This document shows positions 7,427 through 44,940 of a DNA stretch of 64,000 nt, one piece after another. The DNA is taken from assembly GCA_027493775.1 (NCBI GenBank), contig JAOSKE010000003.1, positions 618,845-682,844 of the forward strand, in the 5' to 3' direction. Made by a program: the position numbers and the translations under genes. Position 1 is the first letter of the stretch. Every line of letters starts with the position of its first letter. The stretch is from Kiritimatiellia bacterium (GTDB taxonomy: Bacteria > Verrucomicrobiota > Kiritimatiellia > CAIVKH01). The notes beneath the pieces were generated by a model, which searched no databases, was not told the DNA's origin, and was given only the letters and a program-made list of their open reading frames with translations.

Positions 7427-10400
7427 ATGTTACGAGCTCCCATGGAGTTCCTTCTATCCGATAGAGACGCGAAAGGCTGGGCGGATTTTTTCCGTCGCGG
7501 GGGGACTTTTTGTGCCTTGACTCCGCCAGGCGCTGCGACGACGTGGCTCGCATGGTCGTTGTGGGAGCGATTCAAACGCCCGATTTTATTGGTCGCAGAT
7601 GGGCCGCGCTCGTTGGACCGCTTGTATCGCGATGCGCATTCATTCGCGGGAACACTCGCGCCACAACCCGCGTATTACCCCGCGTGGGAATCGCTCCCCG
7701 GCCACGGCGCACCGCCGCACGTTGACTTGCTCGGCGACCGCTTTGCAGCGCTCACCGCACTCGGTAGCTCAAGTCCACCAGCCATCACCCTCACTTGCGT
7801 ACAGGCATTGATGCAGCACGCACTCCCGCCGGATGCGCTGCGATTGCAACGCTCCATCCTTCAGTTGGGTCAGGAGTTGGAGCTGGACGCGTTTATCAAA
7901 CAGCTCGATGGCGAGGGCTTCTCGTTTTCGACCGAGGTGACGCAGAAAGGACAAGCGGCGATGCGCGGCGGCATTCTCGACCTCTGGCCGACAACGAGCG
8001 ATTGGCCTGTGCGCGTGGAGTTGTTCGGGAGCACGATTGATTCGCTGCGCACGTTTGATCCATCCGATCAAAAATCACGGAGCAAAATTAAATCCATCGA
8101 ACTCGCACCGGTACGCGAGCCGCTCGACCAGCTCACGGCCACCGTTTTCGACCACCTGCCTCGCGAGGCGATCATTGTTTGGCACGAGCGCGAACGAATT
8201 GCGCATCACGCGGCGCTCTACGATGAGGTGATCGGCGAAACGGCAACCGCCGAATACACCGTTTCATTTGAAGAGCTACGAAAGAAAAGCGGGGCGTGGG
8301 CGCAAATTGAATTGGTCTCCGTCGAATCAACACCCGGCGAGGCACGTGCGCTCGACTTTTCGCCATTCAGAAGGCGCACCCGATCTCGGCAGCGGTGTTT
8401 TGCCGCCGGATCAGGTGGAGCGGGAACGGCAACGCGTCGTTGCGGCGCTCAACACCCACGCGCAGGACGGCGGAACAGGCCGCCTCTACTTCAGCACACG
8501 CGGTGCGCGGGAACGCTTCTCGGAAACATTCGGGAAGCTGCTGCGCTCGAACGGTTCTTTTGAATTATTTGACGGCGGAATCTCTGAAGGCTTTGCGATT
8601 CCTTCGCAACAACTTCTCGTACTCGGTGAAGAAGATTTTTACGGACGACGCAAAGAAATTCGTGGCCATTACGACCCGCATAGAAAGCGACGTGGCCCGC
8701 GCCGTCATGCGGGGGATCGCGTGGCGGACTGGAGCGACCTCCAGCCGGGCGATTATGTCGTCCATGTGGATCACGGCATTGGAAAATACCTCGGCTTGTT
8801 TGATATCGAGTTCAACAAACAGCGTCAGGAGGTGCTGGCAATTGAATATGCCGACAAGGCAAAACTTTATCTTCCGGTGAGTCACACGCACCTGCTCAGC
8901 CGCTATGTGGGCGCAGGCAAGAGTCGGCCGGAACTGCACATCCTCGGCGGCAAACGCTGGACAAAGGAAAAGGCGGCGGCGCAAAAGCGGTGCAAGACCT
9001 CGCGGCGCAACTGCTGGAAACCCAGGCCCGACGCGATGCGCTTCCCGGACACGCGTTCCGGAAACGATACGCCGTGGCAGCACGAATTTGAGACCTCGTT
9101 CCCCTATCAGGAAACCGACGATCAAGAGCGCGCCATTGAAGAGGTAAAACACGACCTCGCCATCGCGCGGCCAATGGATCGCCTTGTCTGCGGCGATGTC
9201 GGCTACGGCAAAACCGAAGTGGCCATGCGCGCCGCTTTCAAGGTGGTGATGGGCGGCAAACAAGTCGCCCTCGTCTGCCCCACGACAATTCTCGCGCAAC
9301 AGCATTTCGACAGTTTTACAGAACGTATGGCGGCGTATCCGGTGCGAATCGAGCTGCTCAGTCGTTTCCAAACGCGCAAAGAGCAGAACGACATCGTGAA
9401 GCGCGCGAATGAGGGCAGCGTGGACATCGTTATCGGAACTCACCGCCTGTTGCAGGGCGATCTCACGTTCAAAGAGCTGGGGCTGGTCGTGGTGGATGAA
9501 GAGCAGCGCTTCGGCGTTGCGCACAAGGAGCACTTCAAACACTCCAATACGATGGTAGATATGCTGACGCTGACGGCCACGCCAATTCCACGCACGCTTT
9601 ATCTTAGTCTTACCGGCGCAAAAGACTTGAGCACGATTGAGACTCCACCACAGGAGCGACTTCCGGTTGAAACAATCGTAGTAGATTTGAGCGATGAAAC
9701 CGTGCGCACGGCCATTCTGCGCGAAATCAACCGCTCCGGCCAGGTCTTCTATCTGCACAACCGCGTGAACTCGATTCGCAAGATACAGGCGTGGTTGGAA
9801 CAACTCGTGCCTGAAGCACGGATTCGCGTCGCGCACGGAAGAATGCGCGAAGACGATCTCGCGGACGTAATGCGTTCGTTCGTGCGCGGCGAATGTGATG
9901 TGCTGCTCTGTACGACGATTATTGAAAGTGGATTGGATATTCCAAACGTCAACACGATCCTGATCGAACGCTCGGATCGTTTCGGACTCGCCGCATTGTA
10001 TCAACTACGCGGCCGCGTGGGCCGCTACAAACGCAAGGCCTACGCTTATTTCCTTCTCCCCCGCCATGCACGCCTACTCGACGACGCACGCAAGCGCATC
10101 GGCGCCATTCGCCGCTATTCCGCGCTCGGCGCAGGATTCCGCCTCGCGATGCGCGACCTGGAAATTCGTGGGGCGGGCAACTTGCTCGGCGCACAACAGA
10201 GCGGACACATCGCCTCGGTCGGTTTTGATCTGTACTGCCAACTGCTCAAGCGGACGGTCGCGGCGCTGAAAGGCGAGAAGCTGCCCACCATCATTGATTG
10301 CGAACTTCGACTGGGTTTCGTGGATTTGTCGCCACTGGCCACGGACGACGATATCGCCGCAGTCTTGCCCACCACCTTCGTCGAGGACGAAACGCTACGG

Positions 10401-10712
10401 CTCCGCGTGTACCGCGAAATTGCGTCCGCCTCCTCGCGCGAGGACCTGGATCGGACGCAAAGCGACCTGGCGGATCGCTATGGAAAACTACCTGCCCCGG
10501 TTGAACGCCTCATCGCTATTGCCCGCCTGCGTATCGCCGCATCGTTGCGCGGGTTGAAAAGCATCGAGGTGGAGGAGGACAAAGCAATGCTCTCTTTCGG
10601 ACGCGACCGCTTCTTTATGCCCGGCGGAAAATTCCCGCGCTTGCGCGGCGCGACGGTATCGGCGAAGTTGGAGGAATTGATGAAGCTTGTGAAAGGATCG
10701 AGGCCGTCGTGA
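7427..10712 (+). CDS. mfd: Transcription-repair coupling factor Mfd, interrupted by 3 single-base indels (near 8369, 8987, 9043)
   Basis: UvrB-like N-domains; RecG-like helicase motifs ([26 protein letters not shown]); C-terminal D7 domain. Frames re-join to match E. coli Mfd throughout. Confidence 0.9.
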
Positions 10713-29159: not shown

Positions 29160-29306
29160 CGATTCGCACAGCGCATGGCGCCGGAGAAAAGGCAGAAGGC
29201 CGGAACCTGAAACCTGAAAGACGGCTTGGTTAACACGCCCGCGTGTTTACTGAACGTGGCAGCGGACGTTTAAGAATTCATGCCCATTCGCGACAATCCC
29301 GCTGAA

Positions 29307-31094: not shown

Positions 31095-32630
31095 TATTTG
31101 CCTCCATCCGCAGCGGGGTTGAACGGCTTGAAAATACCACCAAGCCCGGAAGCATCATCACTGCTCAGTACCGTTTCGATTTGCGGCGCGATCTTCTCGT
31201 AAAAAACGTAACGCGCATAATTCTGCCCCGTCCCAAACGCCTGCACGCGACTCCGAATTACCGCCGCCTCGGCCTCATTGTTCAGCTTGATCACATCGCG
31301 ATCGGCACTCGCTCTGGACAACAGCGCCGCCGCCTGCGACTTCGCGGCCTCCGCTCCAAGTTTAGCCACCTCAAGTTCGCGATTCGCCGCGATGACCTGG
31401 ACGTCCTGCCCCTGCTGGGCAAGAAGCACGGCGCGCTTCTGGACCCGTCTCCGCGTCAACCCGTTCCTTGCTCTGCTGCGCAAGCATCTCCTGTTTCACC
31501 AACTCGGCCTGAGACTTCGCCTGCTCCGTCTGCTGGTCGAGTTTAATTGCATTTTGCACCGCAACCTCGCGGTCGCGGATGATACTCGCGATTTGATCGG
31601 GCGTCTGAATATTGCGGATCAATACCGAACGAATCGCCACGCCCCAATCCGCGCTCTTATCCTTCAAATGCGCCTCCAGACTATTCTGAAACTGCTGACG
31701 CGTTTCGCCCACAATAAAGTTAATCGCCGGATGCTTGCTGCCTTCGATACGACTGAACCCGCGAGCGCGCGGAAGAATGACCTTCTTGACCACATCCCCC
31801 ATATCGCCGACGCGATGCGTGATAAGCGCCGCGTTATCGCGCGTAATAGCAAATTCGAGCGTACCCTCGACGAGCACGGTGAACCCGTCCATGGTCAGGA
31901 AGCTGATCGCGTCATCGCCACTGAGTTCGAAACGCTGACTTTGCAACGTCACCTCTGCGACACTCACAATGTACGGATTGAGGTAGTACGTGCCCGGATC
32001 GAGTGTTCCGCTGATCACCCCTTTCATATTCTCGCCCACCAAAAAGGTATTCGTGGCGTCCGCCGGCAAATCGCCGTTCAGAACGTCCCCACCCGTCAGA
32101 TGTGTAACCACCCCCACGCTACCCGGCTTGATCGTAATCGCATCGAACAGATCAACGCGATACGCATAAGGATTAACGCGATGTTTGCCCGGCCTTAAAA
32201 CCTCTTCGAGGATGCCCTTAAATCCCTCGGGCGCGAGAATCTCGCCCGGCGGCAAATCCTTTCCGTACAACCGCGTCAGCACGCCCAGTTTGCCTGCGGG
32301 AATATCCGTAATTTTTGAAATGTGCCAACCCCACGTGTACGGATTTTTGAAATAGCGTCCCTCCGCAAGCACCTCGAGTTGAATTCCTCGCTGACTCGGC
32401 TCCGTCGCAATAATCTCGCCCGACGGCAACGTATCGCCCGTTTTATGAATTAAAATTGCGATTTGATCCGACCGCGGCTCAATCCGGCAATAAAACCAGA
32501 AAAAGATCGGCAGAAACAGAAACAGCGCGATCACAATCACCGGCATCAGCGCGCCCCCCTGAAACACCCCCACCCCGCGAGCGCTCCGAGGCGGCAACTG
32601 CGGAGGCATATTTTGTTGGCCAACAGTCAT
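31094..32630 (-). CDS. SPFH/band-7 domain protein, paralog of the downstream gene. Frameshift near 31450.
   Basis: Same architecture as 29382-31094. Its stop overlaps the downstream start (TAATG). RBS ggaggg before ATG 32630. The C-terminal 129-aa ORF continues the coiled coil. Confidence 0.75.
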
Positions 32631-32928: not shown

Positions 32929-33528
32929 TTACACCATATGAGCGCGAATGAAATTGCCGAGCGTAATGCGGTGAACTTTCAGATGGCGAGCAGCACGGGT
33001 ATAGGAGAACCCTCGCTTGAGTAGACGAGCGATTTCCTCCTCCCGACCAGTAAGTTTTACACGAGCACTTTTGCGTCCTTTGGGACGGCCGAGCGTCACA
33101 CCCTCTGCGCGTCTACGGGCAAGAGCCTCTTTAGTTCGTTGGGAAACAAGGTTGCGTTCGATTTCTGCCGTGAGCGCGAACGCGAATGCCAAGACTTTGC
33201 TACTGATATCAGCCCCAAGGCGATAGTTATCCTTGATGGTCCAAACCTGTACCTCTCGTTTTAGGCACTGGTTAAGGATATCCATAATCATTAAAAGCGA
33301 GCGTCCAAGTCGAGATAGTTCGGCGCAAATTAAGACATCGCCCTTTTGCAAACTCGCCAGAAGTTTGCCGAGTTTGCGTTTTTCTGGTTCCTTGCTGCCG
33401 GAAATAGTCTCCTCAAGCCAAATACCCACAGCGATGTTTTGCCGGTTACAGAAGCAATTAATTTCGTAGCGCTGGTTTTCAACGGTCTGTTTATCGGTAC
33501 TCACACGGATATAGCCATAAACCATCAT
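32929..33528 (-). CDS. Serine recombinase, resolvase/invertase family (DNA invertase)
   Basis: N-terminal catalytic domain YIRVSTDKQ with a Ser nucleophile. C-terminal HTH. 199 aa, typical of Hin/Gin/Pin invertases. Confidence 0.9.
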   Translation of the reverse strand: MMVYGYIRVSTDKQTVENQRYEINCFCNRQNIAVGIWLEETISGSKEPEKRKLGKLLASLQKGDVLICAELSRLGRSLLMIMDILNQCLKREVQVWTIKDNYRLGADISSKVLAFAFALTAEIERNLVSQRTKEALARRRAEGVTLGRPKGRKSARVKLTGREEEIARLLKRGFSYTRAARHLKVHRITLGNFIRAHMV

Positions 33529-33582
33529 GCTGCTCCTTTAATTATTTAAGTGAACAGCAAGATAGTGCAGTTTAGCAAAAAG

Positions 33583-33606
33583 GAGCCTTTTTGTTCGACA
33601 GAATGC
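33583..33606. repeat. Inverted repeat IR-1, left copy: 24 bp, perfect match to 35383-35406 on the opposite strand
   Basis: gagcctttttgttcgacagaatgc versus the reverse complement of gcattctgtcgaacaaaaaggctc. Confidence 0.9.
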
Positions 33607-33839
33607 TATCACTTGCACCTTCCCCGCCGATGGTTCCAGCTGGACTATCCTAAACCCCATCGAGCTGAGCATTAAACGCAAGATCGACATGATCGGCATC
33701 CCGCTGAAAGATTGGGATATCTCCATTAACTACGGCATTAAAACAGGCTTCAACGATGCCTTCATCATCGACGAGGCCAAGCGCAATGAAATCCTCGCTG
33801 GCTGCAAGACCGACGACGAGCGCAAGCGCACTGTCGAAC

Positions 33840-33894
33840 TAATACGACCCATTCTTCGCGGCCGGGACATCAAACGGTACGCGTATAGTTGGGC
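33840..33894. repeat. Inverted repeat IR-2, left copy: 55 bp, 5 mismatches versus 35095-35149
   Basis: taatacgacccattcttcgcggccgggacatcaaacggtacgcgtatagttgggc versus the reverse complement of 35095-35149. Encodes LIRPILRGRDIKRYAYSWA in both cassettes. Confidence 0.9.
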
Positions 33895-34409
33895 GGGGCT
33901 ATATCTCATCGCCACGCATAATGGAATTCCCGAAAAAGGCATTCCGAGGGTCGAAATCACAAAATACCCAGCCGTTAAGAAACACCTCGATTTCCATTGG
34001 CCCAAGATCAAAGCCAGAGCCGATCAAGGAGACACCCCTTATAATCTTCGTAGCTGCGCTTATATGGACGATTTTTCTAAACCGAAAATCGTGTGGGGAA
34101 ATTTGGCTTTGGCGGCACAGTTCTCAGCGGCACCCGCTGGCATGTTCATTAATGCGCCGTGTCCGATGATTGTCCCGTTTGACGGATATTTGCTTGCCAT
34201 CCTCAATTCAAAACTTGGCGATTGGTATATCCGACATCTAGGCGTAACACGCAACGGAGGCTATTTCGAATACAAACCGATGTTCATTGAACAACTGCCC
34301 GTTCCAGAAACGCAATCAAATACTGCCGAAAGGCTCTCGATATTAGCCAAAGATCCTACTGTAGAGGGCCAAGCCGAAATCGATCAGATCGTATTTGAAC
34401 TTTTCCACC

Positions 34410-37400
34410 TTACCCGTGCGGAAATCGACTGCTTAGAAACTCAGTCTCTTCGCGGTTAAGCCCGTAGTAATTAGCAATTTGTACATTTATCTTGCGTTGC
34501 CCTTCAGTGGTTGTTTTGCTCAATTCAGCGCGAATAATTTCAGTAATAGCCCCTTGCTTTTCGAGCGGCTGAATTGGTACGGGCAAGAGTTCGACATGTT
34601 GCCGCAACCAGCGCCAGCCGGTTTCATCAAGGCGGTTGCAAATCATGTCGAGATAGAAGAGGAGAGCCTTGCTGTTTAGAAACGCGAGGAGCCATTCATA
34701 CCCGACGCAATTTTTCGTTACTTCTCCCATTGTTAGAATGTAGCCTGTGTTTCCCACAAAATGACGGTCCCCGTTGAAGGTGAAAGCATTACCAGTCCGT
34801 GCCAGTTCCGCCCACACGATTTTCGGTTTAGAAAAATCGTCCCAATAATCTATCTGGTCTTGGGTCTCGAACCATTGATTGCCAGTTTTTTTACGCGACT
34901 TGTCCAAATTCTTTTCATTTACCGAAAGACCATGCGCAAGTATATGCGCTTTAACTGATTGTTTTTCCGCCGCTGTAAGTGTTTGCCCGGTTTGCCGTAA
35001 CTTCGGATAGAATCCGTACAGAAACTTTTTTACAGCGGGGTATTTGTCGATATCAACGTGCAACGCCGGGAATGTTCCTATAACATATAACTCAGCCCAG
35101 CTGTACGCATACCGTTTGATGTCCCTGCCGCGAAGAATCGGTCGTATTAATTTGGCAGTACGGTTATGCTCGTCAGCATCCATACAATTGCCAAGGATTT
35201 CATTGCGTTTTTCCTCGTCAATAATAAACGCATCGTTGTATCCAGTGAGAATACCACGGTAGATTTTTACATCCCAATTTTTTAGTGGGACTCCTTTCGC
35301 CTCTATCTTGCGTTTGATTGCTTGCTCAAGCGGGGTGAGAATCACCCAACTCGCGCCATCAGCAGGAAATGCACAAGGAGTTGCATTCTGTCGAACAAAA
35401 AGGCTCAAATTATCGCAGCTGGCATTGGTGGCGGTGACGGCGTGAGTTTCTGTGTTTTTTGCGCCGTTTGTGCTGTTGTTTTTCTCATAAAGCAGAATGT
35501 TGGTATCGACGGTGGCGGACGCAAATATTTTCTGACCCGCAAAATCAATGAGGGTTTTGGGTCGAGTATTAGCAGCAAGAAACTTGCGAAGAGACGCGCC
35601 GTAACCGGTCCGCATCCATTTGTTCGAAGTAATGAAACACAAGTATCCATTATTCTGCAGTAACTGCCACGCGCGTTCGTAAAAAAGTGTGTAGATATCG
35701 CCAGTACGCTCAAAAGTCTGAAAACCGAGGTCTTTGTAGAGGCTTGCCAGTCCACCTCGTTTGCTCTGGAGCTGGACATAAGGCGGATTGCCGATCACGA
35801 TATCGAAACCTTTTCCGAGCGAACTTCCGAACATCCAATGAGGATCAAAGAAGTCAGAAGATGCCTGCGGATCGAAAGGATCCCAAGTAGCGATGTGTTC
35901 GGCTTTCTTGGATGAGCCGAGGCTTTCGGCAAGCAACCTGCTGAGTTTTTTGCGTAGGTCTTTGATCTTGCGTTGCAGGGCAAGTTTCTGGTCTCGGCGC
36001 TGGATACCGAAATGGCTGTGGTATAGATCGTCGATTTCTGATTCGATCTTATAGATCTCGGGATTCACGAGTGCCAGCTGGTTCATCTTCGGCAGACCGA
36101 TGAGCGTATTGGCGACAACAAACTTGGTTTCCAGATTGGGCAGTGGGCGAATGCCGTGGTTTTGCTTCTTATTCCGATTGGTCTTTTGATCGCAGACGAG
36201 GGAGATAAAAAAGCGGAGCTTCGATATCTGGATGGCGATGGGCTGGATGTCCACACCGAAGAGACAGTTTTCGATGAGGTAGAGCTTACGACCGTAGTCG
36301 TCCTCGTTGTCGGCGAAGTCCCGCTCGATGGCTTCGATGGCAGCTTCTCGCGCGGAGGAATCGGGAATCTTCGCGGCGGCGGCGATCTGGAGTTGCTTCC
36401 AGCGCGCGTTGTCCGGGGTCGAGTTTGTGGATGACAAACACAAGTTTGTGCAGCATCCCCATCGGGAAGGCTCCGGAGCCACAGGCGGGATCGAGAATCT
36501 TACAGGTGTGGATGGCATCGAGCAGGGCAGCGATTTCGCGCTCATAAAACGGGTGTTCGCGCTCGGTGTAGGCGAAGAGGATGTCGAGGCCAGCCCGTGC
36601 GTCCTTTTCCGCCAAGCCGCACCCCGCCAACGCACCGACAAGGTGGGCCTTGAGCGATTCGTCCACCATGTATTCGACGATGGGGCGCGGGGTGTAGAAA
36701 GAGCCGGTTTGCTTGCGAGCGGTGCTCTTGGTTTCCTCGTTATAGGAGGCGAGCAGATTCTCGAAGACCTTGCCGAGCAATTCGGGATCGAGGGCGATTT
36801 CCTGATCGATCGGGGTATTCTCGACAATGGTAAATTTGTAACGGTTTAGAATAGGGATCAGGCCGGTGACTTTTTCCGCCCTACGCTGTCTGTCGTCATA
36901 GATGTCGGAAAGGTCTGCCGTTTCGCCGCTGTCGAAAAAAAGGCGGTCGGGAACGTGGGGGCGTTTGCTGGCATTGCGGGAGAAGCCGTCGAGGTAGAGT
37001 TTTTTGTCGGTACTTTCCTCGGTGCGGTCGAGACATTCAAAAAGCCCGCCGTTGAGAAAAGGAATGTCCGCAAAGAGAGCGATGGCCTCGTCAGGCGAGC
37101 AAGCGAAGAGCTTTTCATAGCGATAGAGGTTGTTGATGTCGTACGTAGTTCTGTTCTTCGCGAAGCCTTCGTCCATGGCGAAAACGCGATAAGGCTTCCC
37201 GTTACTGTCCTTGCCCATACGCTGATTTAGCGTGGCGAAGAAAAGGTTTTGTAGAATGGCCAGGTAGTAGCTGGAACAGGTCTCGCTTTCAGGATCGAAT
37301 CCCTTGAGTATTTTGGCAAGGTCGGTGGGATGGAAAAGTTTCTCCGGGATAAGATTCTTTTCCTTGAGGAACCAGCAGAAAATAAGCCGGGTAAGCAGAC

Positions 37401-38187
37401 GAATAAGGCCCGTGGCGCGGCGCTTTTCATCATCTGGCTCCAAGTCGGCGGGAAACTCAACTTGCGGGAGTGCCCAGAAATACCAGTTGGCCAGCTCACG
37501 GTAAAAACGCTCATTAAGCAGTTCGACGTTAAAAATCTGCTCCCAAGCGGCGTGTAAGGTGTCGAAGTCGGTGATGAGCAGTTTCTTCGGATGGACGAGA
37601 TTAGGCAGCGCCAGGGAATCGAGAATGTCGAGGTGGCCGCGGTGGGGTTGGGCGAAGTTGATATCGCGTATGATGGTGGCCTTTTCGAGGACATCTTTGC
37701 TCTCGTCGTTTTTGTTTCGGCGGCGATTGATGACGGCAATGGTGAGTCGGCTCTGGTGCTTGAAGATCACCATGACGGGCATGGGGAAAAGACGATTGAT
37801 CTGTCGGGCGATGGCGGAGAATTTACCTCGGGCGTATTCGCCACCATTTAGCTCGATGGCGACGAAGACGTAGGATTTGAGCAGACCGCGTTGAACGGAG
37901 TCGTCGGTGAACAGACTCAACTCGCGGCTGAGCTCCTGATCGGTAAGCTGGAAAAGAAGATCAGCGGTCTTCCATTCATCGAAAAGGGCTTTTTTCTCGT
38001 CAAAGGTGTGGCCGGAGCCGAAGAGATCGAGAAATGCCTGCGGCGAGGAGCCGGCACCGGCAATCGACCTCTTGCTCCCGTAGCCCAGCCTGTTTAAGAG
38101 CGCCGTGGCGGCTTTCGCCAATGGTTGGGCGCCAAATTCGGCAAGCGCCTTGACGATGGCGTGTTTCGTGTCGTGAACAGTAGGCAT
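34410..38187 (-). CDS. Type IIG restriction-modification enzyme (MmeI/PglX-like fused endonuclease-N6-adenine methyltransferase-TRD). Frameshift at the G4 run near 36416.
   Basis: MTase motif I DPACGSGAF and motif IV NPPY. The C-terminal specificity domain contains IR-1 and IR-2. The N-terminal 633-aa ORF and C-terminal 805-aa ORF join at ...VFVIHKLDP|DNARWKQLQ. Confidence 0.8.
35095..35149. repeat. Inverted repeat IR-2, right copy, inside the expressed Type IIG gene
   Basis: See IR-2 left copy. Confidence 0.9.
35383..35406. repeat. Inverted repeat IR-1, right copy, inside the expressed Type IIG gene
   Basis: See IR-1 left copy. Confidence 0.9.
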
Positions 38188-38189
38188 GA

Positions 38190-39065
38190 CTAGGCTTTCT
38201 TCTTCCGCAGTTTCCTGGCGCTCAACGGCGTGGCCTTCTTCATGCCCTGCGAAAGGCCCAGATAGTTCTCCGAAGAGATGACCTTGCGGCCGCTCTTCTT
38301 CTCGAGTTCGCGGCGGGCGTTGCCGGCCACCGCGCCGCCGTCCTGGGCGGCGGTCTCGTTTTCTGGGAAACCCTGGGCGTCGCGGGTGCGGGTGATCTCA
38401 GTGGTGGCGGCTTCGCCGAGCATCGAGAAGATCAACTCCAGGGCGGTCATGTGGTCGCGCAGGTTCTGGCGGGCCAGTCCCTTGAGTTCGGCATACTCGG
38501 AAGGCGTCAGGCCGAAGGCGGCCTTTGAGATTTCCGCGGTGAGGATGGCGTATTCGCGCTGTTCCTTGACGCCCCGCCTCTTCCATTCGTCGGTTAGTTC
38601 GTCGCGGATGGCGATGGAGCGCATCCGCTTTTCGATCCAATCGTCGGAGTAGCCCTTGGCCTTATAGAGGGCTCGGGTCCGTTTGGTGGCGAGTTCGGGG
38701 TCTTCGATCTCCTGGATGCGCTCATAGCCGACCTTGGCGAGCCACCGCTTGAACGGCTCGGCTTTGGGGCTGGGGATGGATTGGATGATCCGAAACAGGC
38801 CTTCCGCATTGGCGCAGTTAAGATTTTGTGGACCGCCAGCCGTCTGGATCGAAAGGGGGTGGACAATTTGTCCATACCCTTTGGCCAGCTCGGGATCGCG
38901 GCGGCGAACCTTGTTCAGGTAATCGGTTGGATCGGCCGCGTCGGTCAGCGCGGCAACCACATCCACTACGACAAACCACCATTCGTTGTTGTGGATGGCG
39001 CGGCGGATTTCTTTGCGATGGAACAGCGCAATGCGTGTTTCAGGATTGGGTGTAATGTCTGGCAT
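38190..39065 (-). CDS. dinD: DinD-like DNA-damage-inducible protein with Bro-N domain
   Basis: Bro-N motif KEIRRAIHNNEWWFVVVDVVAALT and DinD-like central region. 3 nt downstream of the helicase gene. Confidence 0.7.
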   Translation of the reverse strand: MPDITPNPETRIALFHRKEIRRAIHNNEWWFVVVDVVAALTDAADPTDYLNKVRRRDPELAKGYGQIVHPLSIQTAGGPQNLNCANAEGLFRIIQSIPSPKAEPFKRWLAKVGYERIQEIEDPELATKRTRALYKAKGYSDDWIEKRMRSIAIRDELTDEWKRRGVKEQREYAILTAEISKAAFGLTPSEYAELKGLARQNLRDHMTALELIFSMLGEAATTEITRTRDAQGFPENETAAQDGGAVAGNARRELEKKSGRKVISSENYLGLSQGMKKATPLSARKLRKKKA

Positions 39066-39067
39066 GG

Positions 39068-42000
39068 TCAGGATTTCTCCGGGGCTTTGATGACGAGCCA
39101 GGTGACGAGGTCGAAGTCGTCGCCGGCGGAGGTCGGCGATTCGGCCGCCGACGGCAACACGGCGTTACGACCGGCCTGGAGCGCAGACGCTGCGCGTTTT
39201 CGGAAGGTGTGCTCGATGGAGGCCAGCGCCTTCTTAAGCAGGCTGTCGTAGTGGCTCATGTCCGTACCGTCTTTCGTGTGCTTGTCGAACAGGTTGCAGA
39301 GCTCATCGAAAGCGGTCGTTTCGCCAGCTGCCAGATCACGAAGCAACAGCATGGACTCCTTCGGCTGGGCGAAACTGAAGCGAACCATGCCGTCGTCATG
39401 GACATAGACGATGTAGTACGGGACGAGCGGATTCAGATTGGTCGTATCCGCCGGTTTATCTGACTCCCTTTTCTCGACCGCCGCTCGATGTCGCAGGCAG
39501 AACAACACGCCCGGACGGACCCTCGCAAACAAGTCTTCCTTCGTCGGAACCACGGCATAAAGCCCCTCTCCCGCCTCCTCAAGGGCAGCTCGGTTGGTTT
39601 CCAAATACTGCAACAGATCGAGCCTAAACTCATCCAGCGAAAAGTCTGTCAGTGAGACAGAATCATCAAGATCACTCAGGTCGAGAATCTCGTCCTTGAG
39701 CCGCTTGAGCTGGCGATCCCGGAACAGGAGGTCTTCCTTAATAAGCTCCTGTAGTTGATCAGGATCGAGCAGATTATCGCTTTGAGTAGCCGACAAATCC
39801 ACCAGTGCCATACGTGCTTCCACGCGCATTTTTATTCCGAGGTACTGATCCAAATCGGATACAGGCCAAAAATTTACGAGTTGGACAGAGTCGTTACGGG
39901 AGCCGATTCGATCAATACGGCCAAAGCGCTGGATGATGCGCACCGGGTTCCAATGGATGTCATAGTTAATCAGAAGGTCACAATCCTGGAGGTTCTGTCC
40001 TTCAGAAATACAATCGGTTGCAATCAGTAGATCAATTTCCTCGTTCTGGTTGGGAAATCTCTGCATTTGCTCAGCTCTGCGCTTCGCGCGGGGCGCAAAA
40101 TTAGTCAAAATATCATCGTAATCTGTTGCTCCCAGACTGGCGGCATTGCCCCCGTCTCCACACACGAGGCCCACGTGGATATTGAGTTCGCTCCTCGCCC
40201 ACGGCTCAAGGTGTTCATGTAAATAACGGGCTGTATCGGCAAAGGCAGTGAAAACAAGAACCTTCTTATTTTTCTCTCCATCGCGATTGGTTGAAGGTTC
40301 GCGAACTTTCGTCTCTATAAATTCTTTTAATTTCGCGAGTTTTCCATCGCGTTTGACTGTAACGGCTTCCGTTTTTTCGAGTAGATATTGCAGCTGTGTT
40401 CGGTCATTGCGCACGGCCTTGAGCCATTCCGGCAACTTTAGATGTTTAAGATGTATGCGCCGATGGCCACCGATTGTGAACTCCTCTTCATCAAAATCAG
40501 GGTCTTCAAAAAGTTCCGGAGTCAGTTGCTCGTAGCTCATCTGCGAGTTGTCGTTGGAATGCGCCTCAAAAAGGGTGATTTTTTCTTCGATCTCACCAAT
40601 TTTTTTGATCGTTCGCTTTAGCGTCCACCGGAAGGAGTCCACGGAACTCTCCAGCCGCTTAAGGAGGTTCACCTTCATCATGGCAATGAGGATGCGTTCG
40701 CGCCCTTCCTGTGTAAACGCGCCTAGTATCTTTGCCTCATAGCGCTCCCGTACACTGGGAGGTAAATCGTCGCGCAAGTAGTGAGTGGGGTGATACAAGG
40801 CGAGGCGAAGAGCGTTAATTTCACGGTCCAATTGCTCGAATGACAGAAAGTGTTGTTGCAAGTCTATCGGCGCATGAACGGCCCTCGGCGGTGGGCGTTG
40901 CGGAAAGCCACCCAACTCTTTCATTTCGTCCTTGTAGTATCTGGCTACCTGCTTGCGTGAACGAGCGATACTGAGGCCATCGAGTAGTCTAAAAAAGTCG
41001 CCACCTATGCCCGAAAGTAAATCGCGCGTCTTGCGATCTTCCGGAGGCCTTTTTGCCCATGCGGTGAATTGCATCTGCGCCTGGCGCGAGGTTTCTTTTA
41101 CCGATGCAATATCAAGCTTCTCGGCAAAGGCGGTATCTGCGAAATCGTCGCGAGCGACGTCACCTCCGGCGATAAACGAAATCTGGTTGCGAAGATCCGC
41201 CAACTGATTATTCACAGGTGTCGCAGAAAGCAGCAGAACTTTGGTATGTACGCCGGCTGCAATAATGTCCTCCATTAGACGCTGGTAGCGGCTGCGACGG
41301 GGCGCGGCGTCCCCCTCACGCTGCGTTGCAAGCTTGTTATTGCGGAAGTTGTGAGACTCATCAATTACGACCAAGTCGTAGCCGCCCCAATTCAGAGTGT
41401 CCAAATATAAACCATTGACCTCCCCTTTCTCGCGAGAAAGGTCCGTATGATGAAGAACATCGTATCGAAACTTGTCATCAGCAAACGGGTTGAGTGAGCT
41501 GGGGCTGCGATAGATAGTCCAGTTCCGGCCGAGCTTTTTTGGACAGAGCACTAAAACTCGCTCATTCCGCAATTCGAAATATTTTATTACGGCTAGAGCA
41601 GTGTATGTCTTCCCCAGACCAACGCTGTCCGCCAAAATACAGCCGCTGTAATCGAGGATTTTATTGATAGCAGCCTTTGCGCCGTCTTTCTGAAATGAAA
41701 AAAGGGTCTTCCAGATATGGGTGTCTGGGAGCGCTGTTTGCCGTAAACTCTGATCGAGATCGCGGGCAACAGCCAAGTAATCGCGAAAGAGATGAAACAG
41801 CGTGAGGTAGTAGATGAACTGTGGGGGGTGGTTGGCGTAAAGCTGACCGAGATAATCCAGAACTTCCTGTTTTACGTCTTGAACAAGCGCATCATCATTC
41901 CAAAGTTCATAAAACCATCTTTTTAAGTCTTGGCGATCACGGTCACTATCAACTACGAGGTTTAACTCGATATTGCTGTTGGCGTGCGTGAGACCGAGCT

Positions 42001-42443
42001 CCATGCACGGTGAAATTTGAACTGCCGAGCATCGCATGTTCCACACCGCCTTTGGCGATGTGGTACATTTTGCCGTGCAGCAGTTGGGCGTGGCGCACTG
42101 ATCGGATATTCACTTTTTGCTCAATCCAGTTTGCGCAATCTCGAGCCACCCTTTTTTGCTCCAACTTTTGGCTCAGTTGTAGGCCCCTCTCATTGAGGAC
42201 AAACGCCTTCGTTGCGGTTTTATCTGGATCGAGAGACTTGATGAATCGCGGCTCACCGAAAAGGAAATCGAGGTGCCCTATCTGGTCAAGATGCTCACGC
42301 AATGCATCGTAGGCGTAAATCGTAAAATAGGCCGAGACAACCGAGAGACTAGAGCCTGATTTTATTTTCTCTCGCAAGAATTCCGCAACAATGCCGCGAT
42401 GATAGTTGTCGCGAATACCAGTTATGGGAAGCGATACCGTCAT
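39068..42443 (-). CDS. PLD-family (HKD) nuclease domain fused to SNF2-family helicase. Frameshift near 42002.
   Basis: N-terminal HxK...GSSNFT motif (LLHGKMYHI...GSSNFT). SNF2 motifs DSVGLGKT, DESHNFRN, LLSATPVNN, and helicase-C QRFGRIDRIGS. Both ORFs join at ...NFTVHG|ELGLTHANS. Confidence 0.8.
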
Positions 42444-43936: not shown

Positions 43937-44940
43937 ATGGCTAAAGAACAGGATGTGGCGGCGGTCCCGCTGGAATGGGTCGGGCCGGTGATGTTTTCGG
44001 GGCCGGAGATTTCAGGCGAGGCGCTGCTGCCGTTGGCGACCTACGAGTCGCCGTTGTGGCCCTCGGTAAATCGGGGAGCGCGGGTGACGCGCGAGATCGG
44101 TGGGCTTTCTGTTGTGGTGGTTTCGGAATGTATGACGCGCTCAATCGCGGTGGAGGCGGAGAGCGCTGCCGCAGTCGCAGAAGTGGCACGGGCGTTGCCG
44201 GGGCTGATGGAGGATATGCGGAGAGTGACCGCGACGACGAGTCGCTTTGCACAACTTCAAGAGGTGCATACGCAAATCGTCGGACGGGTGTTGTTTATCC
44301 GATTCTCGTTCACGACGGGAGATGCGTCGGGTCATAATATGGCGACAAAGGCTGCGGATGCGCTGATGGCGTGGCTATTGGAAACGTACCCGCGCCTGGA
44401 TTACGTTTCGATTTCCGGGAACGTTTGCACGGATAAAAAAGTTTCGGCCGTGAACGGAATTTTGGGCCGCGGCAAATATGTCATAGCCGAGGCAGTCATC
44501 CCTGCGGCGACGTGCGAAAAGCGCTTGCGGACGACGGCGGCGAAGATCGCGGATTTGAATCTCAAAAAAATTGGATCGGCACATCGCTTGCCGGCGGCGT
44601 TCGTTCCGCAAATGCGCACTTTGCAAATATGCTCCTGGCGTTCTACCTCGCGACGGGGCAGGACGCAGCGAATATCATTGAAGGCTCGCAGGGGTTCGTC
44701 CACACCGAGGCGCGTGAGGACGGTTCCCTCTATTTTTCGTGTACGCTGCCGAACCTGATTATGGGGTCGGTCGGCAACGGGAAGGGTCTCGATTTTGTGC
44801 AACGCAATTTGGAGCGGCTCGGATGCGCGGAGGAACGAGCGGCGGGCGCAAATGCGCGGCGACTCGCAGCGCTTTGCGCGGCGGCGGTATGGTGTGGGGA
44901 GCTTTCTTTGCTAGCCGCGCAGACAAATCCGGGGAGCTGA
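43937..44940 (+). CDS. mvaA: 3-hydroxy-3-methylglutaryl-CoA reductase (class I catalytic domain). Frameshift at the A7 run 44564-44570.
   Basis: Motifs VPLEWVGPV, TTGDASGHNM (DAMGMNM-like), and GTSLAGGVRSANAHFANMLLAFYLATGQDAAN in the second frame. Confidence 0.8.

Follow-up and report, generated by a model that had tools for sequence, protein, structure and literature searches.

Results

The window, a stretch of 64,000 nt from a long-contig Kiritimatiellae MAG, carries an island at 32929-42443 whose neighbours are mevalonate-pathway, Band_7 and RRF genes (Table 1). Three co-directional minus-strand genes, for a PLD (HKD) nuclease fused to an SNF2 ATPase, a Bro-N protein and an Eco57I-type methylase, are separated by gaps of exactly 2 nt (39066-39067 and 38188-38189), in agreement with the tight three-gene linkage claimed in an earlier sequence-only reading. 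That reading had also described these genes and the invertase as one lower-GC block; the PLD-SNF2 gene (0.512), the methylase gene (0.46-0.545) and the invertase gene (0.49) do lie below the flanks (0.57), but the Bro-N gene, at 0.606, lies above them. No further nuclease genes were found in the island. The remaining window ORFs of at least 400 aa are all housekeeping, and neither drmA/drmB nor further large defence genes were seen elsewhere in the window among these ORFs and the island gene table, which bears out the claimed absence of drmA/drmB.

Table 1. Features of the island, with positions counted from the first letter of the window.
Feature	Position	Strand	Basis or remarks
HKD(PLD)-nuclease/SNF2-ATPase gene	39068-42443	-	ORFs; 1124 aa once the base at 42000 is removed; Pfam and PADLOC PDLC01075
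Single inserted A, CATGG[A]GCTC on the coding strand, immediately following the GSSNFT motif	42000	-	Alignment to L001 and L002
HKD/PLD nuclease domain, one copy, aa ~80-182; H123, K125, GSSN at 140-143	41897-42206	-	Pfam and orthologue alignment
SNF2 ATPase core, aa ~191-847; GLGKT, DESH and QRFGRIDRIG motifs	39902-41872	-	Pfam and orthologue alignment
C-terminal ~275 aa of the PLD-SNF2 protein	39068-39901	-	No Pfam match; PADLOC HKD+Snf2 model spans to aa 1117
Bro-N protein, 291 aa, PDC-S13 family, accessory gene in the inter-gene slot	38190-39065	-	Pfam and PADLOC
DUF4391-fused Eco57I-type N6-adenine methylase with TaqI_C recognition domain	34410-38187	-	1258 aa once the extra C at 36415 is removed
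1-nt insertion, C4 instead of C3, in the methylase gene	36415	-	Absent in L001 and L002
Probable N-terminal DUF4391 domain, restriction-endonuclease-like fold, aa 1-200 of the methylase	37588-38187	-	
Spare, silent recognition-domain cassette in inverted orientation to the methylase gene	33689-34459	+	TaqI_C 48.9 bits; PADLOC Type IIG C-terminal match
Inverted repeats, spare versus expressed recognition domain	33815-35174	.	95 nt, 82% (33815-33909 / 35080-35174); 38 nt, 95% (34060-34097 / 34811-34848)
Serine invertase (Resolvase and HTH)	32929-33528	-	Pfam Resolvase 119 bits

Pfam searches with the PLD-SNF2 protein matched PLDc_2 (33.8 bits, cutoff 27; aa 80-181), RE_NgoFVII (aa 109-182), SNF2-rel_dom (41.8 bits) and Helicase_C (59.4 bits), and the fusion of PLD nuclease and SNF2 helicase predicted from the sequence therefore holds. 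In PADLOC the model PDLC01075 ('C3a139, HKD+Snf2') matched aa 95-1117 with positions 85-946 of a 948-position profile (E = 1.9e-125, 418 bits). Among NCBIfam models none came near its cutoff with this protein (DrmD, for example, reached 143 bits against 610); no curated characterised family fits, as had been expected when the fusion was placed outside the named systems. The PDB sequence search returned generic SNF2 remodellers and methylase cores alone, and Foldseek comparison of a 540-aa N-half model with the PDB gave no match with E below 0.02. Across the orthologue alignment the HKD residues H, K and N are kept in 71-72 of 80 sequences, and SNF2 motifs I and II together with seven of the ten motif VI positions are invariant in all 80. 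Homologues linked to the methylase fusion retain H, K and N throughout, save for one K-to-R change, whereas the HKD motif is degenerate in all eight homologues linked to Type III systems, where Res is present or expected. The Type III-linked branch keeps the SNF2 and DUF4391 pair despite its dead HKD; such persistence, a counterpoint to the system proposed in the Discussion, would mean that what the pair conserves is a role other than cleavage as such.

The methylase protein matched Eco57I (137 bits), N6_Mtase (52 bits) and TaqI_C (40 bits) in Pfam, and its translation shows NPPY and DPACGSGAF motifs. It thus combines a gamma-class N6-adenine methylase and a recognition domain in one chain, as Type IIG/IIL enzymes do, and PADLOC Type IIG models scored 318-408 bits; the MmeI-specific Pfam model gave 21 bits, below its cutoff of 27. 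The N-terminal domain, probably a DUF4391 and the link to the PLD-SNF2 partner that the earlier reading had missed, scored 27.6 bits against DUF4391 (PF14335) where the Pfam cutoff is 29.9, and hhalign aligned it to seven standalone DUF4391 proteins with 86.7% probability (E = 4.4e-6). NCBI names the shortened methylase ORF 'DUF4391 domain-containing protein', and the fused domain occupies the same gene position as free DUF4391. Within this domain position 76 is D/E in 38 of 40 sequences and position 112 in 37 of 40; there is no ExK lysine, position 114 being K in 9 of 40 only. Free-standing DUF4391 has no acidic residue matching D76, as read from the A2 alignment in a region outside the hhalign match. 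The best structural match of the N-domain is the Type IIL enzyme DrdV, and the acidic residues at 76 and 112 together with this match are a second counterpoint to the proposed system, in that the N-domain could be an active nuclease and the protein a self-sufficient Type IIG/IIL enzyme.

Pairing of the two genes was counted in the genome loci with at least 1.5 kb of sequence downstream of the PLD-SNF2 gene (n = 69). A DUF4391-methylase gene lay directly downstream on the same strand in 60 of these; of the remaining nine, five had standalone DUF4391 followed by Type III Mod, and three of the other four had the methylase elsewhere in the locus. PLD-SNF2 was found upstream of the methylase in 63 of 65 metagenome loci, for which the search had started from the methylase N-half, and many of the gaps in these loci were -9 to +30 nt. 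The nuclease-helicase and methylase genes, which often overlap, are nearly obligate partners, and the conserved linkage to methylase genes suggested beforehand is upheld by this survey. Relatives were encoded in at least 595 of 600 pattern-matched stretches from GTDB species genomes, among the matches listed, and the taxa include Verrucomicrobiota, Planctomycetota, Chloroflexota, Pseudomonadota, Bacteroidota, Bacillota and one methanogen. The pair lies beside GmrSD, ABC-type ATPases, YhcG, Fic and similar genes and is also found on plasmids, company and locations typical of defence islands. A phage collection yielded only five distant matches, so the module is not mainly phage-borne. A distant branch, with the order PLD-SNF2, standalone DUF4391, Type III Mod and Res, is present in 88 of 5426 E. 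coli genomes, with many of its members on plasmids.

The Bro-N gene had been taken for a DinD-like member of a conserved module. Its Bro-N domain is confirmed (Pfam, 51.1 bits, aa 19-111), but the protein is not DinD proper, since the E. coli DinD model NF008573 gave 16.4 bits against a cutoff of 242 over a C-terminal segment only. It belongs rather to the PADLOC single-gene defence candidate PDC-S13 (E = 1.9e-114, 379.8 bits, aa 9-279 against positions 4-277 of 286). Module membership did not survive the survey of loci, in which the gene was present in none of 80 other genome loci and, at a different position, in 2 of 80 metagenome loci. Homologues elsewhere lie inside a type I-B cas operon and beside a DUF86/nucleotidyltransferase gene pair, and a core role was rejected on the strength of these unrelated defence contexts and the absence from the 80 genome loci. 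In about one locus in three, the space between the core genes is occupied by unrelated accessory genes, including a true DinD (352.7 bits, NF008573) in the same slot of locus L051. Judged by this distribution, the Bro-N gene is an independent accessory hitchhiker that landed in a recurrent insertion slot between the core genes.

Discussion

On balance, the island probably encodes a putative two-component, ATP-dependent, restriction-modification-like defence system with add-ons. The 1258-aa protein, with its gamma-class Eco57I-type N6-adenine methylase, TaqI_C and DUF4391 domains, would be the specificity and modification subunit, and the 1124-aa protein, with one HKD (PLD) domain and an SNF2 ATPase, the motor and nuclease subunit. 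The methylase protein would mark host sites and, at an unmethylated site, recruit or license its PLD-SNF2 partner through DUF4391; the SNF2 motor would then translocate along double-stranded DNA with ATP, and two single-HKD domains would join into one active site and cut. Pairing of the HKD domains for cleavage is predicted from the established chemistry of the PLD nucleases Nuc and BfiI, in which two single-HKD domains form one active site. The proposal is supported by the domains of both proteins, their conserved catalytic motifs and the near-obligate pairing of the genes, by the recurrence of the PLD-SNF2 and DUF4391 pair beside a different methylase class and by the hhalign link between fused and free DUF4391. 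Current annotation divides the pair into a 'Type IIG enzyme' and a 'helicase-related protein'. Should HKD-SNF2 prove to be the true restriction subunit, many database 'Type IIG' calls would represent half of a two-protein ATP-dependent system, and the cleavage predictions made for them would be wrong. The architecture itself is already noticed, in the PADLOC 'HKD+Snf2' model and, at two loci, by Milman et al. 2023 (PMC9881135), mentions that had escaped the sequence-only reading. Literature on PDC-S13, DUF4391, HKD+Snf2, Eco57I/SNF2, PLD/SNF2/Type III, HKD+Snf2 with Argonaute and BrxR/WYL with Snf2 yielded no paper naming or testing the pair.

Instead, the 1258-aa protein might be self-sufficient as a Type IIG/IIL restriction-modification enzyme, using its own PD-(D/E)xK-like N-domain for cleavage, with the PLD-SNF2 protein as an auxiliary or second-line effector, one that for example breaks down DNA once a first cut is made or works against anti-restriction. 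The acidic residues D/E76 and E/D112, conserved in at least 92% of sequences, agree with such an enzyme, as do the PADLOC Type IIG scores of up to 408 bits and the name Cj0031-like Type II that Milman et al. give to enzymes of this kind (PMC9881135). This explanation is nevertheless unlikely, given the missing ExK lysine and the D76 equivalent that free DUF4391 lacks on the same reading of the A2 alignment; near-obligate and often overlapping pairing would be unexpected for an optional helper, and the HKD has been retained in just those loci that have no other dedicated nuclease gene.

Neither large gene is continuous in the window: the PLD-SNF2 gene reads as ORFs of 164 aa (41949-42443) and 992 aa (39068-42046) in different frames and the methylase gene as ORFs of 633 and 805 aa. 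The earlier reading had overlooked both frameshifts and treated 39068-42443 as a single ORF of ~1120 aa, which the insertion at 42000 breaks. Were both frameshifts real inactivating mutations, the system would be dead here and the locus a decaying restriction-modification island. Loss of restriction systems is common, and the insertion at 42000 sits outside any homopolymer, so a real mutation is conceivable; a dead system is nonetheless improbable. With the base at 42000 taken out, the gene encodes 1124 aa that match the PLD-SNF2 protein P0001 at 100% identity. P0001 is unbroken in two independent short-read assemblies from near-identical strains, and in these the methylase gene is uninterrupted too. 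Locus L002 is 99.96% identical to the window, differing over 7.9 kb by one substitution and by two indels, the sole alignment gaps, at 42000 and 36415. Over a 20-kb overlap with L001 the window has four more 1-nt indels, all at short nucleotide runs, two of them in HMG-CoA reductase (44563 and 44930), one in the Band_7 gene (31444) and the fourth immediately beyond the called genes (29227). The housekeeping-gene indels and the two intact short-read assemblies led us to reject real pseudogenes as the main reading. On the same comparisons both frameshifts are most likely assembly errors of the long-contig MAG, and the system is therefore probably intact in the organism.

By programmed inversion, the serine invertase and the inverted spare cassette would swap the recognition domain and hence the specificity of the methylase; in Milman et al. 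2023 (PMC9881135) long reads confirmed the same architecture as an inversion target. The pair might on this basis be mainly an epigenetic switch (a phasevarion), in which inversion shifts the methylome and expression while the PLD-SNF2 protein serves in chromosome maintenance and not in defence. The spare cassette, inverted repeats and invertase would suit such a role, and phase-varied Cj0031-type enzymes alter gene expression according to the title of ref. 45 in PMC9881135. It is very improbable all the same, since an invertase was detected in just 3 of 80 genome loci, the pair keeps defence-island company and plasmid locations, and conservation of an active nuclease motif points to DNA cutting.

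Membership of DISARM, BREX, Hma/BR, Type I, Type III and Type ISP was considered, and each class was rejected for want of a defining feature. Class 1 DISARM (DrmA, DrmB, DrmC, DrmD and DrmMI) resembles the island in its PLD nuclease, SNF2 helicase and adenine methylase classes, a resemblance on which the sequence-only reading had drawn and which goes no further than these shared domain classes. Weak matches to DrmD (PADLOC 123 bits; NCBIfam NF038317 143.2 bits) and DrmMI (68 bits), with the shared classes, speak for a reduced or variant DISARM in which DrmC and DrmD are fused and DrmMI is added. Such a system is hardly credible: the NF038317 score lies far under its cutoff of 610, the PADLOC HKD+Snf2 model fits far better, nuclease and helicase are one protein here, the defining DrmA helicase and DrmB (DUF1998) are missing from the island and the whole window, and the pair is found again at more than 120 loci, whose flanks were screened solely for methylase, Bro-N, invertase, ATPase and GmrSD homologues. 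DrmMI genes can also be inversion targets (PMC9881135). As to BREX, the methylase scored 74 bits against PglX (NF033452, cutoff 500), and PglZ and BrxC are absent from the island and window. Type ISP enzymes hold all functions in one polypeptide, whereas here motor-nuclease and methylase are separate genes and there is no Mrr domain. Single-chain Type IIL/IIG enzymes (MmeI, DrdV, BpuSI and C. jejuni Cj0031) work alone, in contrast to a methylase that is almost always paired with HKD-SNF2 and whose N-domain is DUF4391 with no clear ExK motif.

SauUSI, a Type IV enzyme, likewise couples a single-HKD nuclease at its N-terminus to an ATP-dependent motor and must dimerise to cut. It joins its PLD nuclease and SF2 helicase to a recognition domain, but is modification-dependent, has no partner methylase and carries a motor outside the SNF2 family; no SauUSI match was seen in the PDB sequence search. 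In the Type-2 BREX-related (BR)/Hma systems, too, the effector joins an HKD nuclease at its N-terminus to an SNF2 helicase and has an N6-adenine methylase as partner; these systems are built around a DUF499 AAA+ ATPase together with a DUF3780 gene, and a restriction-modification-like action is proposed for the effector (Rakesh & Krishnan 2026, PMC12839542). The island shares the fusion and the methylase but has no DUF499 or DUF3780 gene, nor has the window; the BR/Hma methylase is BrxXI-like and without DUF4391, and the PADLOC HmaA model gave 83.6 bits on the PLD-SNF2 protein against 418 for 'HKD+Snf2'.

A broader reading, tentative and somewhat short of an even chance, is that PLD-SNF2 and DUF4391 form a portable motor module that attaches to unrelated methylases, either fused (Eco57I-type) or free (Type III Mod). 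DUF4391 would then be an adaptor or licensing domain and not a cutter, and the two-gene form a distinct, unnamed class of ATP-dependent restriction-modification with HKD-SNF2 as sole restriction subunit and the junction as a built-in slot for accessory immunity. The DUF4391 link between the branches, the loss of HKD with Type III Res and the accessory slot offer testable hypotheses on the coupling of methylase and motor-nuclease, and the E. coli relative, present in 88 complete genomes, makes experiments practical. The Type III-linked operons, such as those of the E. coli H5 chromosome, Acinetobacter sp. NEB149 pMsp65 and Phaeobacter porticola pP97_c, are annotated, though no paper naming or testing them was found. 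They share with the island a PLD-SNF2 protein homologous over its full length at ~40% identity (408 bits with the same PADLOC model), a DUF4391 module immediately after it and then a methylase, and an insertion slot for accessory genes. They differ in that DUF4391 is a separate protein of 225-266 aa, the HKD is degenerate in all eight homologues examined, and the methylase is a beta-class Type III Mod accompanied by a Res nuclease-helicase, a combination absent from the window and confined to this distant branch.

Gene organization of the island

Four co-directional genes on the minus strand, encoding an HKD (PLD) nuclease/SNF2 ATPase protein (PLD-SNF2), a Bro-N protein, an Eco57I-type N6-adenine methylase and a serine invertase, are bounded by housekeeping genes on both sides, with the mevalonate pathway, a GNAT acetyltransferase and an M23 peptidase on one flank and two Band_7 genes, RRF and UMP kinase on the other. 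The nuclease-helicase fusion claimed in an earlier, sequence-only reading of this DNA is real, and the 2-nt intergenic gaps it reported are exact. Two inverted-repeat pairs lie within the methylase recognition domain (95 nt at 82%; 38 nt at 95%), and together with the invertase and an inverted silent cassette they look like a programmed-inversion specificity switch. Part of this region is skipped by L001, a short-read contig of a near-identical strain, as heterogeneity there would predict.

Features of the island and of related loci
Feature	Sequence	Coordinates	Strand	Pfam domains
PLD/HKD-SNF2 gene	window	39068-42443	minus	PLDc_2, SNF2-rel_dom, Helicase_C
Bro-N gene	window	38190-39065	minus	Bro-N
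Eco57I-type methylase gene	window	34410-38187	minus	Eco57I, N6_Mtase, TaqI_C, near-threshold DUF4391
Serine invertase	window	32929-33528	minus	Resolvase
Spare recognition-domain cassette, inverted, silent	window	33689-34459	plus	
Region resembling a specificity switch	window	32929-35174		
Region skipped by contig L001	window	33584-35395		
Mfd-like (TRCF) ORF, 814 aa	window	8268-10712		
ABC ATPase	L003	8513-12080		SMC_N/AAA_15/AAA_23 type
ABC ATPase	L005	17069-18739		SMC_N/AAA_15/AAA_23 type
Free-standing methylase N-domain copy, 294 aa	L027	13542-14427		DUF4391-like
Bro-N homologue	L169	7007-7903		

Pairing of PLD-SNF2 with a methylase

With PLD-SNF2 as query, 80 loci were taken from species-representative genomes, and 69 of the loci include 1.5 kb or more of downstream sequence. 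A methylase homologue, N-domain included, lies directly downstream on the same strand in 60 of these 69 loci. Five others have a free DUF4391 gene and then a Type III Mod gene in this position, with Res within the fetched range in three of the five, and three of the four leftover loci have the methylase at another place in the locus. The reverse search of metagenome contigs with the N-terminal half of the methylase placed PLD-SNF2 upstream on the same strand in 63 of the 65 loci having at least 1.5 kb of upstream sequence, and the spacing between the two genes in the metagenome loci is often −9 to +30 nt. Linkage in other genomes, which the sequence-only reading had named as the test of its module, is thus conserved for PLD-SNF2 and the methylase.

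The same reading had overlooked a DUF4391 domain at the methylase N-terminus. Residues 1-200 match Pfam DUF4391 just under threshold, and profile-profile comparison of the N-terminus with seven free DUF4391 proteins gave a probability of 86.7% (E 4.4e-6). The free DUF4391 genes occupy the same place as the fused domain, immediately after PLD-SNF2, and their operons go on with Type III Mod and Res. This shared position and the profile match indicate that PLD-SNF2 and DUF4391 travel as a pair, which, as judged from sequence, appears to attach to two unrelated methylase classes, DUF4391 being fused in one case and a free protein in the other. Operons of this distant, Type III-linked branch were found on Acinetobacter and Phaeobacter plasmids, and a homologue belonging to it is present in 88 of 5426 complete E. 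coli genomes; on the E. coli H5 chromosome (L171) the locus adjoins tRNA-Thr and begins with a gene for an HTH regulator.

In roughly one locus in five (the two tabulated and ∼15 more), the gene after the methylase encodes an ABC ATPase of the SMC_N/AAA_15/AAA_23 type (∼557 aa), with GmrSD sometimes next. The window lacks this ATPase, which may represent either an optional third component or part of a neighbouring system.

Candidate restriction subunit

When the window PLD-SNF2 protein is aligned with 79 orthologues (80 sequences in all), motifs I and II of SNF2 are invariant, as are seven of ten motif VI positions, and the H, K and N of HKD are kept in 71-72 sequences. In all eight Type III-linked homologues of this small sample (L074, L077, L078, L081, L084, L085, L086 and L087) the catalytic H, K and N are lost, for example by a change of H to Q, with the ATPase motifs invariant; the fetched sequence around three of the eight contained no Res gene. 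Homologues linked to the fused methylase all retain the HKD residues, save for one K-to-R change. HKD thus persists where the island has no further dedicated nuclease gene, whereas the branch bearing Type III Res has lost it. Of the comparative evidence, this contrast argues most strongly for PLD-SNF2 as the restriction subunit of the two-gene form. We consider it reasonably probable that the two genes encode a two-component restriction-modification system in which PLD-SNF2 has this role.

The main rival, that the methylase protein cuts alone with PLD-SNF2 as a helper, is unlikely. The methylase protein shares the layout of Type IIG/IIL enzymes, and the fold of its DUF4391 N-domain is probably restriction-endonuclease-like, the scores being weak. 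An acidic residue (D/E) is conserved at N-domain position 76 in 38 of 40 sequences and at position 112 in 37 of 40, and the N-domain has no ExK lysine. As read from an alignment in which the correspondence lies beyond the hhalign-matched region, the acidic residue matching D76 is missing in free DUF4391.

The Bro-N gene and a recurrent insertion slot

The Bro-N gene, wrongly taken as a module partner in the sequence-only reading, has no counterpart in any of the 80 other genome loci. Two metagenome loci have a 77%-identical copy downstream of the methylase, not between the core genes. Other homologues were found on an Arcobacter cloacae plasmid (pACLO, L169), flanked by cas4 and cas1b within a type I-B CRISPR-Cas operon (44% identity), and on a Parabacteroides plasmid, adjoining a DUF86/nucleotidyltransferase gene pair. 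Along its full length the window protein matches PDC-S13, a single-gene candidate in PADLOC (380 bits); DinD proper was rejected, since NF008573 scored 16.4 bits (cutoff 242) and matched the C-terminal segment alone. The GC content of the gene is 0.606, compared with 0.51-0.545 for its neighbours.

An insert of 0.5-2.6 kb separates the two core genes in roughly one locus in three (23 of 67 measurable genome loci and 22 of 63 metagenome loci). The occupants include YhcG/DUF1016 (six loci), AlbA_2 or DUF4062 with HATPase_c_4 (five loci), a small protein lacking a domain assignment that is common to two loci, a true DinD (352.7 bits, L051), and one case each of Fic, KilA-N, ORF6N, Uma2 and a zinc-ribbon protein. 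Across loci L006-L167 the junction acts as a hot spot for repeated insertion, and the window Bro-N gene is one among many unrelated occupants of the slot. The E. coli branch has the same insertion habit, but between DUF4391 and Mod, where L171 carries genes for an 'ATP-dependent nuclease' and a DUF2130 protein. At L027 the slot holds a free-standing copy of the methylase N-domain and the downstream methylase keeps its own; the free copy may have arisen by duplication or be a remnant.

Frameshifts in the core genes

Neither large gene is a single ORF in the window; the sequence-only reading had missed the two frameshifts. The PLD-SNF2 gene is broken at 42000 by an A inserted directly after the GSSNFT motif, and the methylase gene at 36415, where a run of three C carries a fourth. 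Once the base at 42000 is deleted, the translation matches P0001 at 100% identity, P0001 being the intact PLD-SNF2 protein encoded uninterrupted on two short-read (Logan) contigs of near-identical strains, L001 and L002. Over 7.9 kb, L002 and the window share 99.96% identity and differ by one substitution and only the 42000 and 36415 indels. L001 is 99.66% identical, and relative to it the window has four further 1-nt indels, all at short nucleotide runs: those at 44563 and 44930 break HMG-CoA reductase into three ORFs, that at 31444 breaks a Band_7 gene into two, and that at 29227 lies just beyond the called genes. Given the intact short-read copies and these extra indels, assembly error is the most likely cause of the frameshifts, and a genuine double knockout of PLD-SNF2 and the methylase is improbable. 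A 633-aa truncated methylase ORF from a Kiritimatiellae MAG (867-kb contig) carries the NCBI name 'DUF4391 domain-containing protein'. On these comparisons the window assembly appears indel-prone, which calls for caution with its other split genes. Mfd is usually longer than 814 aa, and the Mfd-like ORF may be another gene cut by an assembly indel.

Comparison with known systems

A search with the PLD-SNF2 protein returned at least 8000 relatives, a large and well conserved family; the best 120 of these matches share at least 73% identity and come from many phyla. No NCBIfam model reached its cutoff with PLD-SNF2 (DrmD, 143 bits against 610; 'phospholipD_antiphage', 130 against 1100; DpdE, 96 against 500), and no solved structure of a close relative was found. 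One PADLOC model fits well, PDLC01075 ('C3a139, HKD+Snf2'), at 418 bits over nearly the whole length; the PADLOC models for DrmD and HmaA scored 123 and 84 bits.

DISARM, BREX, Type I, Type III and Type ISP systems each miss a defining feature at the locus, as do the DUF499-centred BREX-related/Hma systems (PMC12839542). The central finding holds, and characterised systems do not explain the PLD-SNF2/methylase pair. A literature search found no paper naming or testing the pair. The fusion of HKD to SNF2 ATPases in restriction-modification contexts was noted long ago (PMC3417536), and Milman et al. (2023) described two inversion-targeted 'Cj0031-like Type II' genes, each adjoining a PLD+SNF gene (PMC9881135). 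Glimpsed before in this way and not categorically new, the pair is best filed as a variant of ATP-dependent restriction-modification.
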